Shown here piece by piece: positions 3 to 14,561 of a stretch of 31,546 bases of DNA. Origin of the DNA: Candidatus Aenigmatarchaeota archaeon (GTDB lineage: Archaea > Aenigmatarchaeota > Aenigmatarchaeia > QMZP01 > QMZT01). The notes beneath the pieces were generated by a model. It worked only from the letters and a program-made list of their open reading frames with translations. It was not told the origin of the DNA and made no database searches. The stretch lies in assembly GCA_043808015.1 (NCBI GenBank), contig JAZDFI010000018.1, positions 1 to 31,546 on the forward strand. The letters run 5' to 3'. Position numbers and translations under genes: made by a program. The stretch's first letter is position 1, and each line of letters starts with the position of its first letter.

Positions 3-2420
3 GAATTCCTCGGCAATAAACAGGGAGATATGGAAGTGAATATCAAAAACAAAAAAGGCGAGATAAGAACTTTGATTATTTCCTCGGCCTCTAACCCAGT
101 CCACAAAGACGGAAAAGTGATAGGGACGCTTGTGAACGCCAGGGACATCACCGAACGCAAGAATGCGGATGACGCCATTAAGAGCTCAGAGGAGCGGTTC
201 AGGACGATATTCGAATACGCGCCCGACGCGATTTACATCAATGACATGGACGGCAGGCTGATGGATGGCAACAAAAAGGCTGAGGAAATGATGGGGCGCA
301 AAAGGGAAGAGCTGATTGGCAAGAATTTTGTGCAAATGGGAATGCTGCCGAAAAGCCAGATACCGAAGGCCATTTCACTGCTCGCCAGAAACAAGCTAGG
401 CAGGTCGACCGGACCTGACGATTTCACACTCATAAGTAAAAACGGGGGAAAGATTGACGTCGACATAAGCACCTACCCGGTAAACATCGACGGCAAAAAG
501 ATGGTCATGGGCATAGCCAGGGACGCAAGCTACCGCAAGCTTAAGGAAAACATGCTGGTTGAAAGCGGCAGGAACCTGGAAAGCGCGGTGAAAGGCAGCT
601 CTGTGGCGACTTTTGTCATAGACAAAAACCACAAAGTGATTTACTGGAACATGGCATGCGAAAACCTCACGGGCATCGCGGCCGATAAGGTTGTGGGCAC
701 GGACAAACACTGGTCGGCTTTCTACGGGAAAAAGAGGCCGGTGATGGCCGATATCATAGTTGACGGTTCAAAGACCGAACACTTTGAAAAATATTACAAA
801 AACATGTACAAAAAATCCCCGCTTCTGGAAAACGCTTTCGAATCCGAGAGGTTTTTCCCTGAACTGGGAAAGGGCGGGAAATGGATTTTCTTCACCGCGG
901 CGCCTCTGAATGACAAAGAAGGCAATATAACGGGAGCGATAGAAACCCTGCAGGACATAAGCGAACGTAAAATGCTGGAACGAGAGAAGGAAAAAACTTT
1001 CGATTTCATGAAAAAATACCAGGCCGCTATAATTAAAATCTCGACATCGGAAAACTTGTTCAGCGGTAACATAAACGAAATTGATAAGGAAATAACGGAA
1101 ACCTTGGCAAAAACAATAGATGTCGGGAGGGCCAGCATCTGGCTGATTGACAAACAAGAAAATGCGCTCAAATGCGTAGACCTTTATGATAAAACGAAAG
1201 ACGTCCACTCCAAAGGCATAGCGCTTAAAACAGCCAAATACCCGAGATACTTCAAGGCGCTTTCCGTTGGAAGGGCTATAGACGCGGAAGACGCTGCCAG
1301 CGACCCGAGAACCAGCGAATTCGCCAGGGGTTATTTTGATGTCATCGGCATATCATCGACTCTCGACGCTCCGATACGCATTGCAGGTAAAACCTCAGGC
1401 GTAATATGCGCTGAGCACGTGGGAGAAAAACGCAAATGGCTAAGCGAAGAGATAAATTTCGTGGCACAGTTGGCTGACCAGGCCGCGCAAGCCGTCCTTA
1501 ATTACGAAAGATATAAGGCAGAAGAGGAGTCGCAGAAGCTCGCATCCGTAGTGATGAACAGCAACGAGATGGTTAACCTCGCCACTCCGGACGGGAAGAT
1601 GATATTCCTCAACCAATCAGGCATGAAGATGCTCGGTATAAATGAAAAGGACATCCAAAAAACCAGCATATTGCAGGTCATACCTGAAAGCTGCATGAAA
1701 ACCGTCCGTGAAGAGCTTCTGCCGTCGCTTATGGCCGGACGCACGTGGACCGGGGATTTGCAGTATCTGAACCTGAAAACCGGCATGACCACAGATGTCC
1801 ATGCAATGACATTCCCGATAAAGGACAAAAAAACAGGGAAGATTCTTTATTTTGCCAACGTTTCCTTGGACATAAACGAAAGAAAGATGTTAGAAAATCA
1901 GATGAAAACCGAGAAGGAGAAGATCGAAGAATACCTCAAGATAGTGGGAAGCGTTGTGTTGGCGCTTGACGTCAATGGCAATATAACAATGATTAACAAG
2001 AAAGGCAATGATCTGCTCGGCTACAGGGAAGGAGAATTAATAGGGAAAAACTGGTTCAAGACCTGCCTCACCAAAGAAAAAAGGCAGGGGGTTGCCGAAG
2101 TTTTCAAAAAAATAATATCAGGGGAAATGAAATCCACTGAAATTTTCGAGAATGACGTGCTGACAAAAAATGGCGATACGAAAACCATCCTCTGGCACAA
2201 CGCGGACATCAAAGACTCTTCCGGAAAAATAACGGGATCGCTCAGCTCAGGCGACGACGTTACGGAACGCGAAAAAGCGGAAATGATATTGAAAGAAAGA
2301 ACCGAGGAGCTCGAACGTTTCAACCGGCTCGCCGTCGGCAGAGAGCTGAAGATGGTCGAACTGAAAAACAGGATAGAAGCGCTGGAGAAAAAGCTCGGGG
2401 GGAGTAAGGAACAAAAATAA
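3..2420 (+). CDS. Multi-PAS/PAC + GAF cytoplasmic sensor, no kinase domain, conserved C-terminal coiled-coil tail (5' truncated by window)
   Basis: Frame is open from base 3 (EFLGNKQGD-M at 30) and begins mid-PAS. Repeated PAC ends (RDITERK, QDISERK, LDINERK, DDVTERE), a GAF domain (ASIWL...LDAPIRIAGKTSGVICAEH) and no HisKA/HATPase. Ends ELERFNRLAVGRELKMVELK. Confidence 0.9.
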   Translation, partial: EFLGNKQGDMEVNIKNKKGEIRTLIISSASNPVHKDGKVIGTLVNARDITERKNADDAIKSSEERFRTIFEYAPDAIYINDMDGRLMDGNKKAEEMMGRKREELIGKNFVQMGMLPKSQIPKAISLLARNKLGRSTGPDDFTLISKNGGKIDVDISTYPVNIDGKKMVMGIARDASYRKLKENMLVESGRNLESAVKGSSVATFVIDKNHKVIYWNMACENLTGIAADKVVGTDKHWSAFYGKKRPVMADIIVDGSKTEHFEKYYKNMYKKSPLLENAFESERFFPELGKGGKWIFFTAAPLNDKEGNITGAIETLQDISERKMLEREKEKTFDFMKKYQAAIIKISTSENLFSGNINEIDKEITETLAKTIDVGRASIWLIDKQENALKCVDLYDKTKDVHSKGIALKTAKYPRYFKALSVGRAIDAEDAASDPRTSEFARGYFDVIGISSTLDAPIRIAGKTSGVICAEHVGEKRKWLSEEINFVAQLADQAAQAVLNYERYKAEEESQKLASVVMNSNEMVNLATPDGKMIFLNQSGMKMLGINEKDIQKTSILQVIPESCMKTVREELLPSLMAGRTWTGDLQYLNLKTGMTTDVHAMTFPIKDKKTGKILYFANVSLDINERKMLENQMKTEKEKIEEYLKIVGSVVLALDVNGNITMINKKGNDLLGYREGELIGKNWFKTCLTKEKRQGVAEVFKKIISGEMKSTEIFENDVLTKNGDTKTILWHNADIKDSSGKITGSLSSGDDVTEREKAEMILKERTEELERFNRLAVGRELKMVELKNRIEALEKKLGGSKEQK

Positions 2421-2471
2421 TATTTTCAGATTGGAATTGTGTTAAAATGAAAGGGGAGCTGGTGATGTAAT

Positions 2472-4028
2472 ATGAAAAAATATCTGTTATGTGGTTTGTG
2501 CATTCTGGCAATTATAGCCCTCTCTGGATGCGTGTCTAACACGAACGAAAACGCGCAAAGCAAAGTCGAGAGGGACATAGTCATAATAGGCACGAAGGCC
2601 GGCATATTCGGCTTCCAGCCATGGATGACTAATTACGAAACATCCACGATGTCCGTGAATTTCAACATCTTCGACGGCCTGGTGGAATTCGACAAGAACT
2701 ATAAAATAACGCCGGCGCTGGCCACCAACTGGGAGAACCCGAACGACCTGACGTGGAGGTTCCACATGCGCAAGGGCGTGAAATTCCACAACGGCTATGA
2801 CTTCAGGGCAGAAGACGTGAAATACACGCTGGAGCTATTAAAAAACGACCCGGGCAGCGTTTTAAAAGACCTGCTGACCGGCATCGACAGAATTGAAGTC
2901 GTCGACGAATACACAGTCGACGTGATAACGAAGGAGCCATATCCCATACTCCTCAACAAGCTGGCCGACTGCTACATCGTTTCAAAGAAATACCAGGAGG
3001 AAGCGACAGACCATACGCCAGTCGGAACCGGGTGCTACAAGCTCGCGGAATACGTTGAGGGGGACCACATAACGCTCGAGGCGTTTGACGGATGCTGGAG
3101 AACGACGCCGAAGATAAATAAAGCCATATTCAAGGTGATAGAGAACGACGACGACAGGGTCAACTCGCTTATAAGCGGTCAGATAGACATAGCTGAAAGC
3201 GTTCCTGTGGGCAGGACTGACGAACTGAAATATAACCAGGCGACGAGGGTCATATACGCACCCAGCACGAGGATAATCTACCTGAGCTTCGACTTCCGTA
3301 AGGAGAACAGCTACGGTTACGGCACAGGCAAAAACCCGACTTCAGATGTGCGCGTGAGGAAGGCGATGTATTACGCCATAGACGAGGACATGATACTCAG
3401 CGAAATAATGAAAGGCCTGGGCCAGCCGGCATCGCAGTTCGTTCCACCTTCCATATTCGGCTACGACCCTGCGATCAAGAGACTGTCTTATGATCTGGAC
3501 GAGGCAAAAAGGCTCATTGCAGAAGCCGGCTATGAAAACGGTTTCAACATAACGCTGGAATGCCCCAACAACAGGTACGTCAACGACGAAGCAGTATGCA
3601 ACGAAATCGGCCGCCAGCTCGCGCAGATAAACATAAACGTCAATGTGAATGCGAGGCCTAAGGCCGAATATTTCCCGAAGGTGCTCTCCAGAAACACGTC
3701 GTTCTACATGCTCGGATGGGCAACCGACACGGCCGACGGCGGGGAGATATTCGATTTCCTGATAAGGACGGTCGACGACAAGAACGGCGTCGGCGGCTAT
3801 AACAACGGCTATTATTCGAATCCCGATGTCGACAGGCTCGGCGTGGAGAGCTCACGAACCATAAATCCAGAGGCAAGGCTCAGCATCATGCACGAGGGCT
3901 TTGAAATCGCCATGGAAGACGTCGCCTGGATACCGCTCCACACAGAAAACCTGATATACGGCACGAAATCCGACCTCACGTGGGAGCCAAGGTCCGACGT
4001 GAAAATAAAGCTGGAGAGCATATCCTGA
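2472..4028 (+). CDS. ABC-type solute-binding lipoprotein, family 5 (DppA/OppA-like)
   Basis: Lipobox-like LSGC signal; PALATNWE, WRFHMRKGVKFHNG, PVGTGCYKL and DVRVRKAMYYAID motifs; GGTGAT SD upstream. Confidence 0.92.
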   Translation: MKKYLLCGLCILAIIALSGCVSNTNENAQSKVERDIVIIGTKAGIFGFQPWMTNYETSTMSVNFNIFDGLVEFDKNYKITPALATNWENPNDLTWRFHMRKGVKFHNGYDFRAEDVKYTLELLKNDPGSVLKDLLTGIDRIEVVDEYTVDVITKEPYPILLNKLADCYIVSKKYQEEATDHTPVGTGCYKLAEYVEGDHITLEAFDGCWRTTPKINKAIFKVIENDDDRVNSLISGQIDIAESVPVGRTDELKYNQATRVIYAPSTRIIYLSFDFRKENSYGYGTGKNPTSDVRVRKAMYYAIDEDMILSEIMKGLGQPASQFVPPSIFGYDPAIKRLSYDLDEAKRLIAEAGYENGFNITLECPNNRYVNDEAVCNEIGRQLAQININVNVNARPKAEYFPKVLSRNTSFYMLGWATDTADGGEIFDFLIRTVDDKNGVGGYNNGYYSNPDVDRLGVESSRTINPEARLSIMHEGFEIAMEDVAWIPLHTENLIYGTKSDLTWEPRSDVKIKLESIS

Positions 4029-4065
4029 AATCCGCGTGAATTGAAAATAAGGTACGATAAGTGGA

Positions 4066-5013
4066 ATGATAAAAATAAACAGCATCAGCTTCAAGGTCAC
4101 GGCGTTCTTGATAGTCCTGTTTATAATCACATTTGCAGTCGTAGGATACGTGATTGTGAACAGGGAAATCGAGACCAGAAAGTCATCCATGCTTTCCGAG
4201 TCGCGGTCCTTCTCGTATCTCAGCGTTGAAAATATAATGAAAAACTACATGATATACTACGAGTCGGGATTCTACAAATACAGGGAACTCGTCGGGATTG
4301 TAATGGCCCTTAACCCAAATCTCGACAAAATACAGATATTGGATTATGATGGCATGATACTGTTCGATTCAGACGAAATAAAAGAAGGCAAATACCAAGG
4401 AAAATTGGAAAGGGTTTTGAATGATGAAAATATCATCAGCAGAATAAGAAAACTGGAACCGTCAGTGGGAAACACAGCATTAGGCGGTAAAGAATACATG
4501 GACATAATCCAGCCTTACATCGAGGAATGGGGAAGGCACCAGTATTCGGTAAGGTATTATTTCTCCTACAAAATCCTTCAGAACGATATCGCCACCATAA
4601 TCACAGAAATAATGGCAGGTCTCATAGCGTCCTTCGTGGTTGTGACCGTAAGTTTCTACATTTTCACCAGGAAGGTGATAATAAAGCCTCTGATTAAAAT
4701 AGCTTCCGGATTCACTTCACTACGCCTGGGAAAGCTGGAAAAGATCGATATAAAATCAAAAGACGAGATTGGCTACGTCGCAGCGAACTTCAACAGCACC
4801 GCGGAAGAGCTCTACAAATCGAGAATCGCCATAGAGGAGCACAGCAAGACGCTGGAAAAAGACGTCGAAGAGAGAACAAGACAGCTCGAGGGGAAGGTGA
4901 GCCAGCTTGAGAGGTTCAGCAAGCTGGTCATAGGCAGGGAGCTGAAGATGGTGGAGATGAAGAAGAAATTAAAGGAAATGGAAGATAAAATGAAAAGTAA
5001 TGGGCAGAAATAA
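4066..5013 (+). CDS. Membrane sensor: 2 TM + extracellular (Cache-like) domain + HAMP + conserved tail; no kinase
   Basis: Two hydrophobic segments flank an extracellular region; HAMP signature IIKPL...SKDEIGYVAANFN; S-helix-like VEERTRQL; ends QLERFSKLVIGRELKMVEMK. Confidence 0.88.
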   Translation: MIKINSISFKVTAFLIVLFIITFAVVGYVIVNREIETRKSSMLSESRSFSYLSVENIMKNYMIYYESGFYKYRELVGIVMALNPNLDKIQILDYDGMILFDSDEIKEGKYQGKLERVLNDENIISRIRKLEPSVGNTALGGKEYMDIIQPYIEEWGRHQYSVRYYFSYKILQNDIATIITEIMAGLIASFVVVTVSFYIFTRKVIIKPLIKIASGFTSLRLGKLEKIDIKSKDEIGYVAANFNSTAEELYKSRIAIEEHSKTLEKDVEERTRQLEGKVSQLERFSKLVIGRELKMVEMKKKLKEMEDKMKSNGQK

Positions 5014-5037: not shown

Positions 5038-5808
5038 ATGAATAAATTTTTGATTGCAGCGATGTGCATTTTGATAGTTGTAGGATTTTCCGGATGCACG
5101 CAGACAGGCGTGAATAGCGGCGGTTCCGCGTTAAAACTTAAAGAGCCGGGCAAACTTATCATAGGCACGAATTTGCCGTACGAGCCGATGGAGTTCTACG
5201 ACGCTTCGGAAAACATAGTAGGCATCGACGCGGATGTTGCAAGAGAAATCGCTGCGCAGCTTGGCCTGGAGCCGGAAATAAGAAATGTTGACTGGGATCT
5301 GCTGTTCGAACAGGTGAAATCAGGCGACCTGGATATTATAATCTCATCCATATCCATAACGAGCGAAAGGCAGAGGGAATATCTTTTTAGTACGCCATAT
5401 TTCAACGCAGGCCAGGTGGTTATCACCAGAAAGGACAATACCGACATCAAATTCCCGGAGGACCTCAAAAACAAGAAAGTGAGCGCCCAGAAAGACACGA
5501 CAAGCGCTGAAGAGGCTGCAAAATACTCGAACAGCTCTACCGTGTACGAAAACTCCGATTACGAAAAAACTGTTGCTGACATTAAAAACGGAAATTTAGA
5601 CGCAATTGTTATGGATTATGTTGCCGGCATCATGCTGGTGAAGAATGACCAGTCACTCAAAATAGCCGTGGAACCTTTCACCCAGGAGTTTTACGGCATA
5701 GCCACGAAACTGGACAACACGGCGCTCATAGACGAAGTGAACAGAGTGCTCAGGGGTATGAAGAGTACGGGAAAGTTGGAAGAGGTAAAAAATAAGTGGC
5801 TCGGTTAA
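5038..5808 (+). CDS. Amino-acid ABC solute-binding lipoprotein, family 3
   Basis: FSGC lipobox; YEPMEF, GIDADVAREIA, SITSERQ, FSTPYF and C-terminal KWLG motifs; GGAGG SD upstream. Confidence 0.92.
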   Translation: MNKFLIAAMCILIVVGFSGCTQTGVNSGGSALKLKEPGKLIIGTNLPYEPMEFYDASENIVGIDADVAREIAAQLGLEPEIRNVDWDLLFEQVKSGDLDIIISSISITSERQREYLFSTPYFNAGQVVITRKDNTDIKFPEDLKNKKVSAQKDTTSAEEAAKYSNSSTVYENSDYEKTVADIKNGNLDAIVMDYVAGIMLVKNDQSLKIAVEPFTQEFYGIATKLDNTALIDEVNRVLRGMKSTGKLEEVKNKWLG

Positions 5809-7499
5809 TGAAAATAAACATATCGTTTAAGATAATCGGGGTAGTTGTTGTGCTTTTTTTACTAGTTTTTATAGTCATCGCTTACAACAACATCGTAATA
5901 TATGAGAACGACGTGACAGGCTATTTCATAGATAAATCCAAAGCCATTGCGTATTCCATAGAAGCTGGTTTAAAGGATAGGGAGAGTTTGAACAAAAAGG
6001 ATGAGCTAATGTCCACCATACATAAAATCATGTGGCTTAATTCTGAAATTACAGATATAACATACGTCACGCAGAGCGAAAGCGGGCTGATAAATTATAT
6101 ATCAAACGACCCAAAAAAAATCGGCGTCAATCCCGACCCTGAAAATTATGAAGCATACGAAAAGGACATCATGATAAGCGAGATTTATACCGGAAGAACT
6201 TCGGATATGCTTAAAATCGTATCACCTCTTCATGTTTCTGGCCAGGTCGTCGGTACAGTGCAGGTGGATTTTACCATGGAAAACATCAACAATGACATAT
6301 CAGCCGTGAGAAACACCCTCATCATGGGTTATATGGCGCTAATGCTCATTTCCATTGCTGCGCTGTTCTTTTTACTGAGGATTATAGTCATAAAACCGAT
6401 TCAAAAAATAAACAAAGGCGTTGAAACATTATCGTCCGGCAAAATGGATTACAACGTTGATATAAAATCCAAGGACGAAATAGGCAGTTTGTCAAAGGCA
6501 TTCAATGAGATGGTAAACGAGCTCAAGCAATCCAACAACCAGATAAAAATGCATGAGCATGACCTAGAGGAAAAGGTAGAAGAAAGGACCAAGGACCTTG
6601 ACGTCAAAGTGGGCGAGCTCACTGACACGAAGACTGCCATTTTAAACATGATGGAAGACATGGACGATGCCAACAGGAACCTTATGAAGATGCAGGACGA
6701 GCTTAGAATGAGCCTCAAGGAGCTGAAGGAAAGCGACATAAAAAAGGACGAATTCATCTCGATAGCGGCTCACGAGCTCAAGACGCCGCTCACCTCGATA
6801 CACGGCTTCGCGCAGCTGCTGCAGAACAAGGACGTCATAGAGAACAAGGAGAAGAGGGGAAAATACCTGGGCATAATGGATCATGAGACCACGCGCCTGG
6901 CGAAGCTCGTGACTGACATACTTGATCTTTCAAGAATCGACCTCGGCACGCTTAAACTGGCGATAGAAGAGGTCGACGTTTCTGCGCTTTTGAGCGACGT
7001 GAGCAAGGAGCTCAGTTTCCAGATGAAGGACCATGGCCTCGATTCTGAATATATACTAGAAAAGAACCTGAAGATGATGACGGACAGGGAACGACTTACA
7101 CAAATAGTGATAAACCTCATAAACAACTCCATCAAATACACGCCGAAAGGCAAGATAACCGTGAAGGCATGGAAAGACGGCGATGACTTCCACTTCATGG
7201 TCAAGGACACGGGCGTGGGCATTCCCAAGGATAAACAGCACCACATATTCCAGAGGTTCTACCAGGTCGATTCGTCGTACACGCGGTCAGCCGGCGGCGT
7301 TGGACTGGGACTCTCGCTCTGCCAGGAATTCGTCAACGTGCTCGGGGGAAAGATATGGTTCGTGAGCCAGGAGGGTAAGGGAAGCGAGTTCCATGTCACC
7401 CTGCCCATGAAGAAAACTATCGCGCCCGGCATATTTGACGTGAAAGCAAAGGCTGCAGAAATTCTCAAGAAGTCCGAAAAAATCACTAAAGGAAAATAA
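5808..7499 (+). CDS. Membrane sensor histidine kinase (TM-sensor-TM-HAMP-HisKA-HATPase)
   Basis: H-box FISIAAHELKTPLT, N-box NLINNSIKYT, G1 DTGVGIP, F IFQRFYQ, G2 GVGLGL. ATG at 5808 overlaps the upstream stop (TAATG) and is preferred over GTG 5796. Confidence 0.95.
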   Translation: MKINISFKIIGVVVVLFLLVFIVIAYNNIVIYENDVTGYFIDKSKAIAYSIEAGLKDRESLNKKDELMSTIHKIMWLNSEITDITYVTQSESGLINYISNDPKKIGVNPDPENYEAYEKDIMISEIYTGRTSDMLKIVSPLHVSGQVVGTVQVDFTMENINNDISAVRNTLIMGYMALMLISIAALFFLLRIIVIKPIQKINKGVETLSSGKMDYNVDIKSKDEIGSLSKAFNEMVNELKQSNNQIKMHEHDLEEKVEERTKDLDVKVGELTDTKTAILNMMEDMDDANRNLMKMQDELRMSLKELKESDIKKDEFISIAAHELKTPLTSIHGFAQLLQNKDVIENKEKRGKYLGIMDHETTRLAKLVTDILDLSRIDLGTLKLAIEEVDVSALLSDVSKELSFQMKDHGLDSEYILEKNLKMMTDRERLTQIVINLINNSIKYTPKGKITVKAWKDGDDFHFMVKDTGVGIPKDKQHHIFQRFYQVDSSYTRSAGGVGLGLSLCQEFVNVLGGKIWFVSQEGKGSEFHVTLPMKKTIAPGIFDVKAKAAEILKKSEKITKGK

Positions 7500-7512: not shown

Positions 7513-8331
7513 CTAACTATTATCTTGTTTTTTGTCCGTTGCGCTTGCGCCGGCCTGTTTCGCGGCTTCAAAAAGCCTGGTAATGATCACTCTGTTATAT
7601 ATGAAACCGGTAGCCATCAGCATGTAGTTCGTGTTCCAAAGTATGTCTATAATGTTTCCGGTCTCATAACTGCCGAGAATATAAGAATATATTATATCAG
7701 CGCACGTGCTCAGCATCAACGCTAAAAATATTACAGACCATGGCCTGACGAATTTGCTGCCCCACAGGTAAGTCAGGCCGAAAGCCATTGAAATAAGCAG
7801 GCACATGTCTTCTGCAATGTATCCGGCTGAAGCCAATTTCTCCAGCAAAGGAGTTTCAGTATCTGCTGCAAATGGTGCAATAAGAAATATTGAAGCCGCC
7901 GCTATCGCTATCACAACGGGCAGCAATACCCACTTTTTTCTGCCGAGCTTCGATGACGAAAGCTTGCAGATGAAAAACATGCCGGCGATGAAAAACGCGT
8001 AGCCCGCATACCAGAAAATATCGGCTATCGACACGACTGGCTTGAAGTCAGTAAATATCTCCAGAACTCCCCATGTTATTTCACCCAGAGTCCAGAATGC
8101 CGTCCCTACCGCGATGAATAACATCGCTTTTCCCTGCTCGCTCTTGAAGCCATGTATCTTGAAGGCGAAAAAGCCGGCCAGAGTGGCCATTATCGCCAGC
8201 GCGGCCACCCACACATCGGCAACGATATAAAAGGAGTCGCCCAGCGGCTTCAATGTGTAAAGCGCCAGATTTATTACAAACAGAGCAGCGAGAATCGAAA
8301 GCCCGAAATATTTCATATTTTCTAATTTCAT
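7513..8331 (-). CDS. Polytopic membrane protein (~8 TM), resembles a stand-alone integral-membrane sensor domain
   Basis: Almost entirely hydrophobic helices; WTLGEITW...SIADIFWYAGY pattern recalls membrane sensor domains normally fused to GGDEF proteins or kinases; no cytoplasmic output. Confidence 0.7.
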   Translation of the reverse strand: MKLENMKYFGLSILAALFVINLALYTLKPLGDSFYIVADVWVAALAIMATLAGFFAFKIHGFKSEQGKAMLFIAVGTAFWTLGEITWGVLEIFTDFKPVVSIADIFWYAGYAFFIAGMFFICKLSSSKLGRKKWVLLPVVIAIAAASIFLIAPFAADTETPLLEKLASAGYIAEDMCLLISMAFGLTYLWGSKFVRPWSVIFLALMLSTCADIIYSYILGSYETGNIIDILWNTNYMLMATGFIYNRVIITRLFEAAKQAGASATDKKQDNS

Positions 8332-8347
8332 TTCAACAACACCATAT

Positions 8348-8548
8348 TCATTTGATATATTTCCTGTAAAGCGGGTCCATCTTTTTCTTGGCCGCGTCCG
8401 AGCCTATGAACTTCCCGAGAAAGTCGGTGCACTCGTCGAGGAAGTCCTTCGGGTATTTTTCAGGATTATCGAAATTTTTCAGCTGGTCGGATATTACAGA
8501 GCCTAGCATTTTGTCAAATAATGATTTAGCTTCGTCTTTCAGCGCCAT
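8348..8548 (-). CDS. Small (66 aa) helical hypothetical protein
   Basis: Fills the gap between receiver and membrane gene on the same strand. Start MALKDEAK at 8548 preferred; alternative start 8578 overlaps the receiver stop. Confidence 0.7.
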   Translation of the reverse strand: MALKDEAKSLFDKMLGSVISDQLKNFDNPEKYPKDFLDECTDFLGKFIGSDAAKKKMDPLYRKYIK

Positions 8549-8574
8549 GGTGTCAGCCTGAGCTATGAAATGGT

Positions 8575-8946
8575 TCATCCTATCATTTTCTTGACCCGCT
8601 TGACGAGGTCGTCGTTGTCGAAGGGTTTGTTTATGTAGTCAAGCACTTTCATTTCCTTGAGGATGTCCTTGCCGGCTTCGGAGAACTTGGCCACGGTCAG
8701 AAAAGCGATTTTCAGGCCCTTGGTCTTCGGGTCTTTCCTTATCTTGTCGCACACCTCGCGCCCGCTCATGCCGGGCATCATCATGTCCAGAAGTATGAGA
8801 TCCGGCGACATGGTTTTGAGCTTCTTCAGGCAATCCTCGCCATCCGATGCTGTGTTCACGGCATATCCTTCGTGCTCGAGCACTGCAGAAACAAGTTCCC
8901 TCAGGCTCTCCTCGTCGTCGACTACGAGAATCTTCTTTTTTGTCAT
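8575..8946 (-). CDS. Stand-alone response regulator receiver (CheY-like)
   Basis: ILVVDDE, phospho-Asp in LILLDMMMPGMSG, FLT, NKPF; TATA-like TTTTAATA about 25 nt upstream of ATG 8946. Confidence 0.95.
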   Translation of the reverse strand: MTKKKILVVDDEESLRELVSAVLEHEGYAVNTASDGEDCLKKLKTMSPDLILLDMMMPGMSGREVCDKIRKDPKTKGLKIAFLTVAKFSEAGKDILKEMKVLDYINKPFDNDDLVKRVKKMIG

Positions 8947-9011
8947 ATTTAACATATTACATCATCTCTTTATTAAAACTGTTAAATCCTGAGATAATCC
9001 TTGGGTGGCGT

Positions 9012-9563
9012 TCACCTGAAATTTATCGTCTTGTCCGCGAACATGCCGAGATCCTTCATCAGCATTTCATTCTCTTCCGAAGGGATTGTGTCCTGTTTCA
9101 GGAGGATGAAGAGCTTTTTGACGTTCTCTTTCGTATCGTCCGACATGATGCTGTGCGTGAAGTTGATGACTGACGACGTCTGCTGGTAAATGAGAAGAGT
9201 GGATATCGTGTCGAAAAGTATGACGCTGCAGCTATTTTTATCGACCGCGTCCTTTATGGCGACGCGTATGGCGGCGAGATCACGCGGTGAGCTCACGAAA
9301 AAACAGTCCTTGCACGGCTCAGGGTCGTGGTAATGCGACGTGAGCACGTCTATGAAGAAGAAATCCGACAGATTGAACCCCTGCTTCGAAAGCTCCTCCC
9401 TCACGTCGCTGACGGGCTTGCTGAGGCACACGTAGCATATTTTCGTCTTCGTCTTCTCCACGCTGTTCATTATCTCTTCCATGCGCTGGACGTACTCGCT
9501 CTCCTCCATCATTATCAGGAGGAACCGGTTGCTGCTGATTTCCTTGATGAGATCCAGTGCCAT
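9012..9563 (-). CDS. Inactivated KaiC/RecA-fold domain protein (iKaiC/DUF835-like)
   Basis: ICYVCLSKP, FFFIDV and ILFDTISTLLIY strands typical of KaiC-fold proteins, but no Walker A. Confidence 0.75.
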   Translation of the reverse strand: MALDLIKEISSNRFLLIMMEESEYVQRMEEIMNSVEKTKTKICYVCLSKPVSDVREELSKQGFNLSDFFFIDVLTSHYHDPEPCKDCFFVSSPRDLAAIRVAIKDAVDKNSCSVILFDTISTLLIYQQTSSVINFTHSIMSDDTKENVKKLFILLKQDTIPSEENEMLMKDLGMFADKTINFR

Positions 9564-12586: not shown

Positions 12587-13255
12587 TCAGATTATCTTGG
12601 TCTCTGTTATCCTGATTTCCTTTGAGTCTATGACAATCTCATGAGGTACTTTGGGCTCGAAGCTCGCGTATCTCATCTTATGGATTGTCATGATTCTCTG
12701 GGGCTTTTCCTCGAGCTCCAGGAACGACATGGAAAGCACGCCGTCGCACTCGAACGACTCCCCGTTGCCCGTGTCTATGTGCTCGCCTCTCGTCTCGCAT
12801 ATAAGGAGCGTGCACCCCATCTGCCTGAGGCTTTTCACCAGTTCGGATAGGTGTATCCTGTAGGAGCGCTCGTTCTCGGCGAAGATGAGCAGCTTGTTGA
12901 CGTTGTCTATGACAAGCCTGTCTATCTTCGGATACGACGCGATTATGTCTATGAACTTCTTCATGGTGATGTTCTCGCCGAGCGGTATGTGCTCTATGGC
13001 GAAATTCTTGCCCACGTATTTCTCCATGGCGCCGAGCGACTCGATGCCCTTGCTGGCGCGGAGAAGCTCGTCCTTCGTCTCGTTAAGCGAGACGTAGCAG
13101 CATCTCTCCTTTTTGAGAATGCCTTCCATGAGGAAATTCATGGCGAATAACGTCTTGCCGGAGCCGGGTCCGCCTGAAACAAGGACCGTCGTTTTCCCCG
13201 GGAATCCCCCTCCGAGCAGCTTGTCCAGCTTCTTGATGCCAGTTCCTATGAACAT
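12587..13255 (-). CDS. Single-domain KaiC-like (RAD55/GvpD-type) ATPase
   Basis: TGIKKLDKLLGGG, Walker A GGPGSGKT, Walker B LVIDN, KMR finger. Confidence 0.9.
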   Translation of the reverse strand: MFIGTGIKKLDKLLGGGFPGKTTVLVSGGPGSGKTLFAMNFLMEGILKKERCCYVSLNETKDELLRASKGIESLGAMEKYVGKNFAIEHIPLGENITMKKFIDIIASYPKIDRLVIDNVNKLLIFAENERSYRIHLSELVKSLRQMGCTLLICETRGEHIDTGNGESFECDGVLSMSFLELEEKPQRIMTIHKMRYASFEPKVPHEIVIDSKEIRITETKII

Positions 13256-13697: not shown

Positions 13698-14561
13698 ATG
13701 ATTTCGCGCAAGAAGAAAAAACCGGTTTCTGCAGAAAAGGCCAGGAAAGCCGAACCGGAAAAGGCGAAGCCCGTCGCTAGCGACGTCGCTAGCGTGAAAC
13801 CGGCGCCTGCCAAGAAGAAGGAAAGTGATGATTTCATAAAAACCGGCATAGAGGGCTTCGATGGCCTCATCGAGAAAGGCATACCCAAAGGGTCTGCGAT
13901 ACTCATAGCGGGCGGCGCAGGCTCGGGCAAGACCATCATGTGCCTCCAGATACTCGCTCACGCCGCCAAGAACGGGAAGAAGGGACTGTATATGTCCTTC
14001 GAGGAGTCAGAATCACGCCTGCGAAAACACATGGAGGATTTCGGGTGGAACGCAGCCGAATACGAAAAGAAAGGTAATCTCATGATAAAGAGGATGAGCT
14101 CATACGAGATAGCGCGCGCCGTCGAAGGATTACTAGCGAAAGAGAGAGGCGAACTGCTCATCGATCTCGATCCTCTGCTCCTGCCGGACAACTATAAACC
14201 GGACATCGTGGTCCTAGACTCGCTGAGCGCGATCGCATCGTATTTCATGGGCAAGACCGGCCAGTACAGGAGTTACGTCGAGCAGCTGTTCAGGTATTTC
14301 GAGCGCATGGGAACGACGTCTTTCATGATAGCGGAGACAAAGCAGATCCCGGAGGTATTCAGCCCGACGGGTGTGGAAGAGTTCCTCGCCGACGGAGTCG
14401 TCGTGTTATACAACATCCGCAAGGGCGACGTGCGCGAGAACGCGATAGAGATACTCAAGCTTCGTGGAACGAAACACATGAAAAAGATAGTAGCCATGCA
14501 AATTGTTGACAACCAGGGCATCGCCGTCTATCCGGATCAGGAAGTCTTCGGCGGGCTCTGA
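13698..14561 (+). CDS. Single-domain KaiC-like ATPase with Lys/Ala/Pro-rich N-terminal extension
   Basis: TGIEGFDGLI, Walker A GGAGSGKT, SFEES, VVLDSLS, GVEEFLADGVV, ILKLRGT. Confidence 0.92.
   Translation: MISRKKKKPVSAEKARKAEPEKAKPVASDVASVKPAPAKKKESDDFIKTGIEGFDGLIEKGIPKGSAILIAGGAGSGKTIMCLQILAHAAKNGKKGLYMSFEESESRLRKHMEDFGWNAAEYEKKGNLMIKRMSSYEIARAVEGLLAKERGELLIDLDPLLLPDNYKPDIVVLDSLSAIASYFMGKTGQYRSYVEQLFRYFERMGTTSFMIAETKQIPEVFSPTGVEEFLADGVVVLYNIRKGDVRENAIEILKLRGTKHMKKIVAMQIVDNQGIAVYPDQEVFGGL

Follow-up and report, generated by a model that had tools for sequence, protein, structure and literature searches.

In the RetS-GacS, BceAB-BceS, LuxP-LuxQ and TorT-TorS systems, a histidine kinase is controlled in trans by another protein, which does the sensing. 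We analysed a stretch of 31,546 nucleotides (hereafter the window; contig JAZDFI010000018.1 of assembly GCA_043808015.1) from a Candidatus Aenigmatarchaeota archaeon, whose genome assembly has 934 kb and is 90.7% complete. Two sensors encoded in the window carry no kinase domain and end in the same short sequence, named here the tail. A histidine kinase encoded downstream carries a second motif, named here the socket. The tail proteins have the make-up of auxiliary trans-acting sensors, being separate polypeptides genetically linked to a kinase, through a five-gene run in the window and through a directional linkage across phyla. Unlike the four systems above, whose interfaces are system-specific, they show a portable motif pair that recurs with unrelated inputs throughout many phyla, apparently with several sensors to one kinase. 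In acid-base leucine zippers, for instance Fos-Jun, a net-basic helix pairs with a net-acidic one. The basic tail and the acidic socket could plausibly form a heteromeric coiled coil of this sort, an analogy that implies no sequence relation.

Three described elements come close to the tail itself. The S-helix is a heptad helix of ~40 residues with an ERT signature, located between two signalling domains (PMC1592074). Like the S-helix as outlined in the available text of that report, tail and socket start with an ERT heptad segment directly after a PAS, GAF or HAMP domain. The tail also agrees with it in sequence, with the ERT, heptad leucines at -16 and -9, and isoleucine or leucine at +12, +15 and +19. 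It departs from the helix outlined there in its placement, as it ends the protein with no domain after it in either window protein, and in a conserved 20-residue extension, F-N-x-L-x-V-G-R-E-L-K-M-x-E-L-K. The nearest functional precedent is RsbK of Bacillus cereus, a sensor kinase whose S-helix is docked by REC and methylated by RsbM, and thus serves as docking surface and regulated site (PMC4574943). The partners that the available text of that report names are the kinase's own REC and a methyltransferase, not the helix of a separate sensor, and it presents no motif pair. Finally, archaeal 'HisKA, no HATPase' proteins keep a HisKA-like domain with its conserved His (Galperin et al. 2018, PMC5847659). 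As far as the available text of that survey describes them, they share with the tail proteins the PAS/GAF sensors, a helical dimerisation element at the end and the lack of a kinase ATPase. The tail, in contrast, has no His, no HisKA match and no profile similarity to the H-box, so the tail sensors do not belong to that group.

Two kinase-less sensors with a common C-terminal tail

The first sensor (positions 3 to 2420, plus strand; 805 aa, running off the contig at its 5′ end) is a cytoplasmic protein in which Pfam finds four to five PAS domains and a GAF domain, followed by an S-helix and the tail; its translation ends in ...KERTEELERFNRLAVGRELKMVELKNRIEALEKKLGGSKEQK*. Its ortholog P0007/P0157, assigned by its source to Candidatus Aenigmarchaeota, has 1205 aa and the same tail. 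Elsewhere in the source genome, a different contig has an open frame of 765 aa (C13:20433-22229) in which PAS_9 matches four times; it may be the missing N-terminal part of this 5′-open frame. The second sensor (4066 to 5013, plus strand; 315 aa) is a membrane protein made of a transmembrane segment (TM), an extracellular part, a second TM, a HAMP domain, an S-helix and the tail, and its translation ends in ...ERTRQLEGKVSQLERFSKLVIGRELKMVEMKKKLKEMEDKMKSNGQK*. The HAMP match, the sole Pfam match there, has an E-value of 3.2e-4 and 21.4 bits, below the Pfam cut-off of 25 bits. An AlphaFold2 (AF2) model of this 315-aa sensor, made without an alignment, showed residues 232-311 as one helix with low confidence (pLDDT 50.9).

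A preliminary description of the window, made from its letters alone, had claimed that two kinase-less sensors with unrelated input domains share a ~30-aa motif after an ERT helix. The translations confirm this, and the two tails start exactly where they had been placed, with E769 of ELERF at nucleotide 2307 in the PAS/GAF sensor and Q280 of QLERF at nucleotide 4903 in the membrane sensor. Together with its S-helix, the first tail covers 2295 to 2417 on the plus strand (ERT 2295-2303, LERF 2310-2321, GRELKM 2337-2354) and the second covers 4870 to 5010 on the same strand (ERT 4870-4878, LERF 4906-4917, GRELKM 4933-4950). Both have the same layout, namely the ERT helix, LERF-x2-L-x2-GRELKMVE-x-K, 16-17 residues and the stop. 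Their alignment over 51 and 50 aa contains 20 invariant columns, including LERF and the 8-mer GRELKMVE. Their net charges are +3 and +5, and a regex scan of the 934 kb found exactly these two copies. Pfam gave no match to HisKA, HATPase_c, GGDEF, EAL or MCPsignal in either sensor.

The tail corresponds to no named domain in Pfam, NCBIfam or the PDB, as the preliminary description had suspected. Pfam returned noise only on the tails, with no HisKA match even at E<=10, and the tail contains no His. NCBIfam has no tail family, its best hit (16.7 bits) being the linker of a REC-HD-GYP family, and the best E-value in a profile search of the PDB was 0.29. In the ESM Atlas, the clusters nearest to the tail are labelled 'hypothetical protein', and a word-index search with tail 2 gave 2 matches among 7 candidates. 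No description of the tail or of the tail/socket pair was found in CC-licensed PMC papers and bioRxiv, which leaves absence from print unproven. A derivation of the tail from a degenerate H-box (F-x6-G-R-E-L-K from F-x5-S-H-E-L-R) was considered and rejected, as hhalign of 240 tails against 52 H-box regions (probability 30%) covered the upstream coil only and not the H-box.

A profile built from the two window tails was searched against 1.84 billion proteins. It matched 8860 cluster representatives at E<=0.001, the best 150 of which were listed, and 141 at E<=1e-10. Conservation beyond the source genome, a check that the preliminary description had called for, was found in 26 of 41 relatives, in 52 of the 301 genomes of a phylum sample and in many bacterial and archaeal phyla. 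In 20 loci of relatives, 20 copies occurred in 19 loci, 9-32 aa before the stop. A GTDB-wide scan with one genome per species confirmed the tail in at least 551 stretches. The archaea among its best 80 loci are Aenigmat-, Woese-, Nano- and Altiarchaeota, Methanosarcinales, Methanoperedenaceae and Hydrothermarchaeales; the bacteria are Verrucomicrobiota, Kiritimatiellia, Planctomycetota, Nitrospirota, Gamma- and Betaproteobacteria, Bacteroidota and many CPR lineages. The position of the tail is nearly constant: in these 80 loci no more than 48 aa separate 90 of 92 copies from the end of the open reading frame (ORF), and 322 of 338 unique copies, pooled from proteins and loci, lie within 50 residues of the C-terminus, with a median of 19.

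The consensus reads E-L-E-[RK]-F-N-[RK]-L-A-V-G-R-E-L-[KR]-M-[IV]-E-L-K-x-x-I-x-x-L, and the protein stops 10-30 residues further on. Over the 338 tails, conservation reaches 97% for G and M, 92% for F, 92-96% for L and 95-96% for E, with R, E and K uninformative in this respect where the tail regex fixes them. Two flavours can be distinguished, a Lys-rich end in archaea and CPR, and an end of the form ...E-I-N-x-L-x-x-x-L-G-x-x-P-x-Y in most other bacteria. Because its near-invariant residues are not demanded by a heptad pattern, the tail can be regarded, from its sequence, as a specific module and not a generic coiled coil. The match between the two window tails lies far beyond chance.

The proteins that carry the tail rarely contain an output domain. 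A Pfam scan of 120 carriers, from which the two window proteins and 29 fragments under ~130 aa were left out, found HisKA, HATPase_c, GGDEF, EAL or MCPsignal in none. A length-aware search gave 54 tail proteins of 442-1409 aa, 53 of them without a kinase or other output domain. The caveat raised at the outset, that homologues might normally continue into a kinase and the window copies be truncations, was thus not borne out (0/120 and 1/54). The input domains of the carriers are PAS, GAF, HAMP, Cache, 4HB_MCP, CHASE4, 7TM, CBS, PocR and SBP_bac_3. In REC-PAS-tail proteins and in 13 CheB-CheR-PAS-tail proteins, the tail also ends cassettes that receive signals.

A partner motif in the downstream kinase

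In the window, both sensors belong to a run of five genes on the same strand, in the order PAS/GAF-tail sensor, SBP_bac_5, TM-HAMP-tail sensor, SBP_bac_3 and Cache-HAMP-kinase, with gaps of 51, 37, 24 and -13 nt. The kinase (5796 to 7499, plus strand) is composed, by Pfam and motif, of TM, sCache_3_2, TM, HAMP, S-helix, socket, HisKA and HATPase_c, and is the sole HisKA match of the source genome.

The same gene order was found elsewhere. ORFs were called in 99 loci (677 ORFs) and 161 immediate neighbours of tail genes were scanned with Pfam. A kinase with HisKA and HATPase is the next same-strand gene for 26 of 85 downstream neighbours, as compared to 5 of 76 upstream. Sixteen of these 26 downstream kinases overlap the stop of the tail gene or start at most 8 nt from it. 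REC-only genes adjoin tail genes upstream in 8 cases and downstream in 1.

After their S-helix, the downstream kinases show an unnamed motif, [QRK]-x-A-x-L-N-[IML]-[LM]-E-D followed by acidic residues, which is the socket. This partner motif is new here and had been missed in the preliminary description; its discovery makes the idea of a plug into the kinase testable. By regex the socket occurs in 47 of the 677 ORFs, where fewer than one would be expected by chance on a rough estimate. It is present in 19 of the 26 downstream kinases vs none of the 5 upstream ones. Among 72 GTDB-wide tail loci, a socket gene lies one to three genes downstream on the same strand in 40 and upstream in 2; by distance, 22 downstream socket genes are at +1, 15 at +2 and 4 at +3. 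None of 104 tail ORFs contains a socket, and among the first 157 proteins collected only P0005 does.

In the window kinase, the ERT of the S-helix (6582-6590) and the socket AILNMMED (residues 281-288, nt 6636-6659) together span 6582 to 6659 on the plus strand. The socket is located 38 residues upstream of the phospho-acceptor His326 in the H-box AAHELKTPL (6765 to 6791, plus strand). The socket profile matches this kinase at E 3.3e-20, the regex finds only this copy in the source genome, and the net charge of the stretch is -3. The one HisKA, the one REC, the two tails and the one socket of the genome all lie within the window.

Three kinases display the socket in multiplied form. In L068:2760-3758, L091:549-1706 and L093:6138-7412, the N-terminus consists of four to six tandem 21-residue socket repeats, with the unit T-Q-[KR]-A-[IV]-L-N-I-L-[ED]-D-x3-E-K, and the kinase starts at or over the stop of the tail gene. 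In L068 and L091 the repeats are followed by the catalytic core with no sensor domain; in L093 (Ramlibacter albus GTP1) one PAS precedes HisKA. Pfam found no model for the repeats, giving noise only.

Co-occurrence was measured in the phylum sample of 301 genomes, with thresholds of 1e-5 for the tail, 1e-8 for the socket and 1e-5 for HisKA. The tail was found in 52 genomes, the socket in 50 and HisKA in 75; 48 genomes have both motifs, 4 the tail only, 2 the socket only and 247 neither. HisKA is present in all 50 socket genomes, and none of the 25 genomes with HisKA but without a socket has a tail, so that the tail tracks the socket and not kinases at large. Of the 48 two-motif genomes, 38 have a tail on the strand of the socket and at most 3.2 kb upstream of it. 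These genomes have one socket each (two in G022) for one to eight tails. A second clade, the order of a Ramlibacter genome (121 genomes), gave a similar picture, with the tail in 9 genomes and the socket in 8 of these, so that one genome has the tail alone and none the socket alone. For 7 of the 8, the one socket match is found downstream of a tail at a distance of no more than 1 kb. Finally, three large bacterial genomes with 110, 72 and 51 HATPase_c matches each have one tail gene and one socket ORF, adjacent, with the socket after the tail.

Natural fusions reproduce this order in a single chain. P0185 (1254 aa), P0205 (1137 aa) and P0251 (847 aa) contain PAS, tail, a linker of 12-45 residues, ERT and socket, so that module order equals operon order; P0185 and P0205 continue to a kinase and P0251 goes straight into GGDEF-EAL. 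An AF2 monomer model of the fusion stretch of P0185 shows two long helices with a break at 69-80, at the G-Q-P-A-P-Y linker (pLDDT 81.5, pTM 0.37), and is uninformative on the packing of the two helices against each other. In a comparison of the motifs themselves, hhalign aligned tail and socket in register over the S-helix only, with a probability of 15.7%, and their homology was not established.

Several further arrangements were observed at tail genes. Thirteen proteins (P0237-P0261) and the products of L085:3103-6192, L088:3109-6192 and L064:2083-6177 are CheB-CheR-PAS fusions ending in the tail, annotated at source as 'CheB/CheR fusion protein'. In Cupriavidus L085, the gene after the fusion encodes a socket-bearing hybrid kinase. 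Six long bacterial proteins (P0009, P0010, P0019, P0041, P0104, P0193) comprise two cassettes, each ending in the tail variant G-R-E-E-[RK]-[IM]-I-E-L-K ... G-x-x-x-P-[YF]. Bacterial operons contain KaiC, KaiB and a tail sensor (L042:2171-6246, L034:3030-6213) or KaiB, a kinase, a tail sensor and a kinase (L075:389-9775), and KaiC-like DUF7504 genes are found directly upstream of tail genes in 8 archaeal loci. FIST-domain genes adjoin tail genes in the archaeal loci L026:6149-7534, L030:4628-5797 and L036:3552-4697, with KaiC on the other side in L030 and L036. The genome G027 encodes tail sensors at L101:4933-5478, L102:5111-5602 and L103:4892-5815, one of them beside a hemerythrin gene; a hemerythrin gene also flanks tail genes in L086 and L099.

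Proposed docking and its alternatives

The functional coupling of tail sensors to the downstream kinase is strongly supported by gene order, co-occurrence and fusions. On balance, we favour with somewhat better than even confidence that kinase-less sensors possess in the tail an unnamed C-terminal module dedicated to output, that its functional partner is the socket kinase encoded just downstream, and that it docks there as a plug. Such docking is plausible as a mechanism, and the physical contact, the geometry and the consequence for the kinase are inferred. The preliminary description had proposed that the tail docks split sensors to a shared partner, either the adjacent kinase or a KaiC/iKaiC hub. 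Gene order, profiles and fusions all point to the adjacent kinase, with physical binding as the part that we infer, and the KaiC/iKaiC hub found sporadic support from gene neighbourhoods.

In the proposed mechanism, the ERT S-helix of the sensor would run on into a net-basic helix of ~30 residues, the plug. The plug helix, as a dimer, would pack against a likewise dimeric helix of the socket that lies 38 residues ahead of the phospho-acceptor His, and a ligand-driven change in the S-helix of the sensor would bias the kinase/phosphatase state. Several sensors could in this way share one hub kinase. In the window, the PAS/GAF protein and the membrane HAMP protein would feed the single kinase 5796-7499, which would phosphorylate the single receiver 8575-8955. 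The hydrophobic residues of both consensus motifs extend past the a/d stripe, and such a wide hydrophobic face would fit helices that pack inside a bundle with three or more strands. A complex prediction with two socket and two tail copies scored 0.01 (mark 0.32) in a run without controls and weighs neither way.

More tentatively, and at somewhat short of an even chance, the pair may be a portable connector across Bacteria and Archaea. A basic 'GRELKM' plug and an acidic 'A-x-L-N-x-x-E-D' socket would connect, in trans, free-standing sensor cassettes (PAS, GAF, HAMP, Cache, REC-PAS, CheB-CheR-PAS) with kinases or cyclases that serve as hubs, with several plugs sharing or competing for one socket or one row of repeats. 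This would provide a general means of many-to-one integration and of rewiring by gene fission and fusion.

A number of observations weigh against docking onto the downstream kinase. By regex, 7 of the 26 immediately downstream kinases have no socket, and 32 of the 72 loci have no socket gene, many of these being truncated where the contig or locus stops. The motifs were counted with the author's regexes on ORFs from a crude caller, which fails where GC is high, as in L093. Many bacterial kinases have their socket far from the dimerisation and histidine phosphotransfer domain (DHp), ahead of PAS arrays, so that a direct effect of the socket on DHp cannot be general. Internal tails in some long proteins precede an acidic linker and PocR, not a socket. 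In the relative G027 (93% complete, 9 contigs), HisKA and socket are both absent and none of the three tail sensors has a kinase gene close by, and further tail-only genomes are G020, G112 and G290 in the phylum sample and G317 in the second clade. In addition, the co-occurrence counts are drawn from related genomes that are not independent samples, and are given without a statistical test. Co-occurrence and gene order may both stem from one operon family split from multi-module kinases, with no direct contact.

The alternative that survives best, which we nevertheless judge rather unlikely, is that sensor and kinase are coupled without docking. The tail would then be a conserved dimerising end-cap, the sensors would act on the kinase by other surfaces, for instance in heteromers (PAS-PAS or HAMP-HAMP), by co-localisation in the membrane or by way of a third protein, and the two motifs would co-occur as hallmarks of one ancient cassette family, repeatedly split and fused. 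Tail and socket have the same register after the S-helix, with leucine at -16 and -9 in both and the in-register hhalign match described above, and could therefore be parallel variants of one linker type. The non-helical linker of 12-45 residues in the fused forms, the PocR after internal tails and the tail-only genomes such as G027 fit this alternative as well. A mere cap, however, would need no near-invariant G, R, E and M, in the core and outside it, across bacteria and archaea. The kinases of L068 and L091, reduced to socket repeats and a catalytic core, offer no other sensor-like surface. Moreover, none of the 104 tail ORFs carries a socket although the genes are adjacent, and the net charges of tail and socket are opposite.

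It is improbable that the tail, the socket or both are instead a substrate or docking site for glutamate methylation of the CheR/CheB type, serving adaptation as RsbM does on the S-helix of RsbK. Methylation of and REC docking to that S-helix are documented (PMC4574943). Thirteen of the 60 matches of one tail search are CheB-CheR-PAS proteins ending in the tail. In L085 and L064 a socket kinase comes after such a fusion, and L022, L045 and L048 have CheB or CheR as a gene of its own beside the tail gene. The order CheB-CheR-PAS-tail before a socket kinase hints at methylation control of the connector. Yet CheB or CheR occurs in only 6 of the 99 loci, and none was seen in the window, the rest of the source genome not having been searched. 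Unlike the methylation sites of methyl-accepting chemotaxis proteins (MCPs), which are rich in glutamate pairs, the tail does not appear to be rich in them.

Equally slim are the prospects of another hub, in which the tail would dock KaiC-like ATPases, KaiB or another shared partner and not the kinase. It would account for the order KaiC, KaiB, tail gene in L042 and L034, the order KaiB, kinase, tail gene in L075, the DUF7504 genes adjoining tail genes in 8 archaeal loci, and the two KaiC genes and the DUF835/KaiC-like gene located within 9 kb in the window. These associations are rarer and less directional than that with the socket (KaiB in 3 of 99 loci, KaiC in 7 and DUF7504 in 8, vs the socket in 40 of 72), and the KaiC genes of the window lie on another strand or in another unit. 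Decay of both sensors from full histidine kinases can practically be dismissed: although the tail follows the S-helix where many kinases have DHp, and its 'ELE-x-F' lead-in resembles some HisKA kinases, thousands of intact carriers have the same conserved C-terminus, hhalign against the 52 H-box regions aligns only the upstream coiled coil, and no His stands at the equivalent place.

Accessory genes of the window and significance of the pair

Two solute-binding proteins are encoded within the five-gene run, SBP_bac_5 with a signal peptide and Cys (2472 to 4028, plus strand; Pfam E 9.3e-86) and the lipoprotein-like SBP_bac_3 (5038 to 5808, plus strand; Pfam E 1.2e-38). Judging from gene order, the SBP_bac_5 product is likely the extracellular ligand receptor of the membrane HAMP sensor. 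In the proposed scheme, the two membrane-side proteins would probably supply ligands to the HAMP sensor and to the Cache kinase. Solute-binding protein genes account for 23 of the 161 immediate neighbours of tail genes found by Pfam in the 99 loci.

The REC-only response regulator (8575 to 8955, minus strand) is the sole Response_reg match of the source genome and is presumed to be the phospho-acceptor of the hub kinase. It is followed on the minus strand by genes at 8348-8578 (76 aa) and 7513-8331 (a 272-aa multi-pass membrane protein), both without a Pfam match and converging on the kinase gene. Also near the sensor operon are a DUF835/KaiC-like gene (9012-9563, minus strand) and genes for single-domain KaiC-like ATPases (12587-13255, minus strand; 13698-14561, plus strand). 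Other products of the window are the archaeal ribosomal protein L32e, an archaeal FBPase and split RNA polymerase subunits.

It has long been asked by what route stand-alone sensors pass on their signal, especially in archaea and in CPR/DPANN organisms with small genomes. We know of no output for thousands of proteins annotated 'PAS domain S-box protein' or 'hypothetical'. If the pairing of plug and socket is true, it would assign each such sensor a testable kinase partner and explain kinases made of repeats and a catalytic core only. It would also supply a compact natural connector for engineered signalling circuits. The pair is present in the cultured bacteria Ramlibacter albus GTP1 and Cupriavidus numazuensis and is therefore directly testable. 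For the archaeon studied here, it would show how a 1-Mb genome routes several inputs into its single two-component system.

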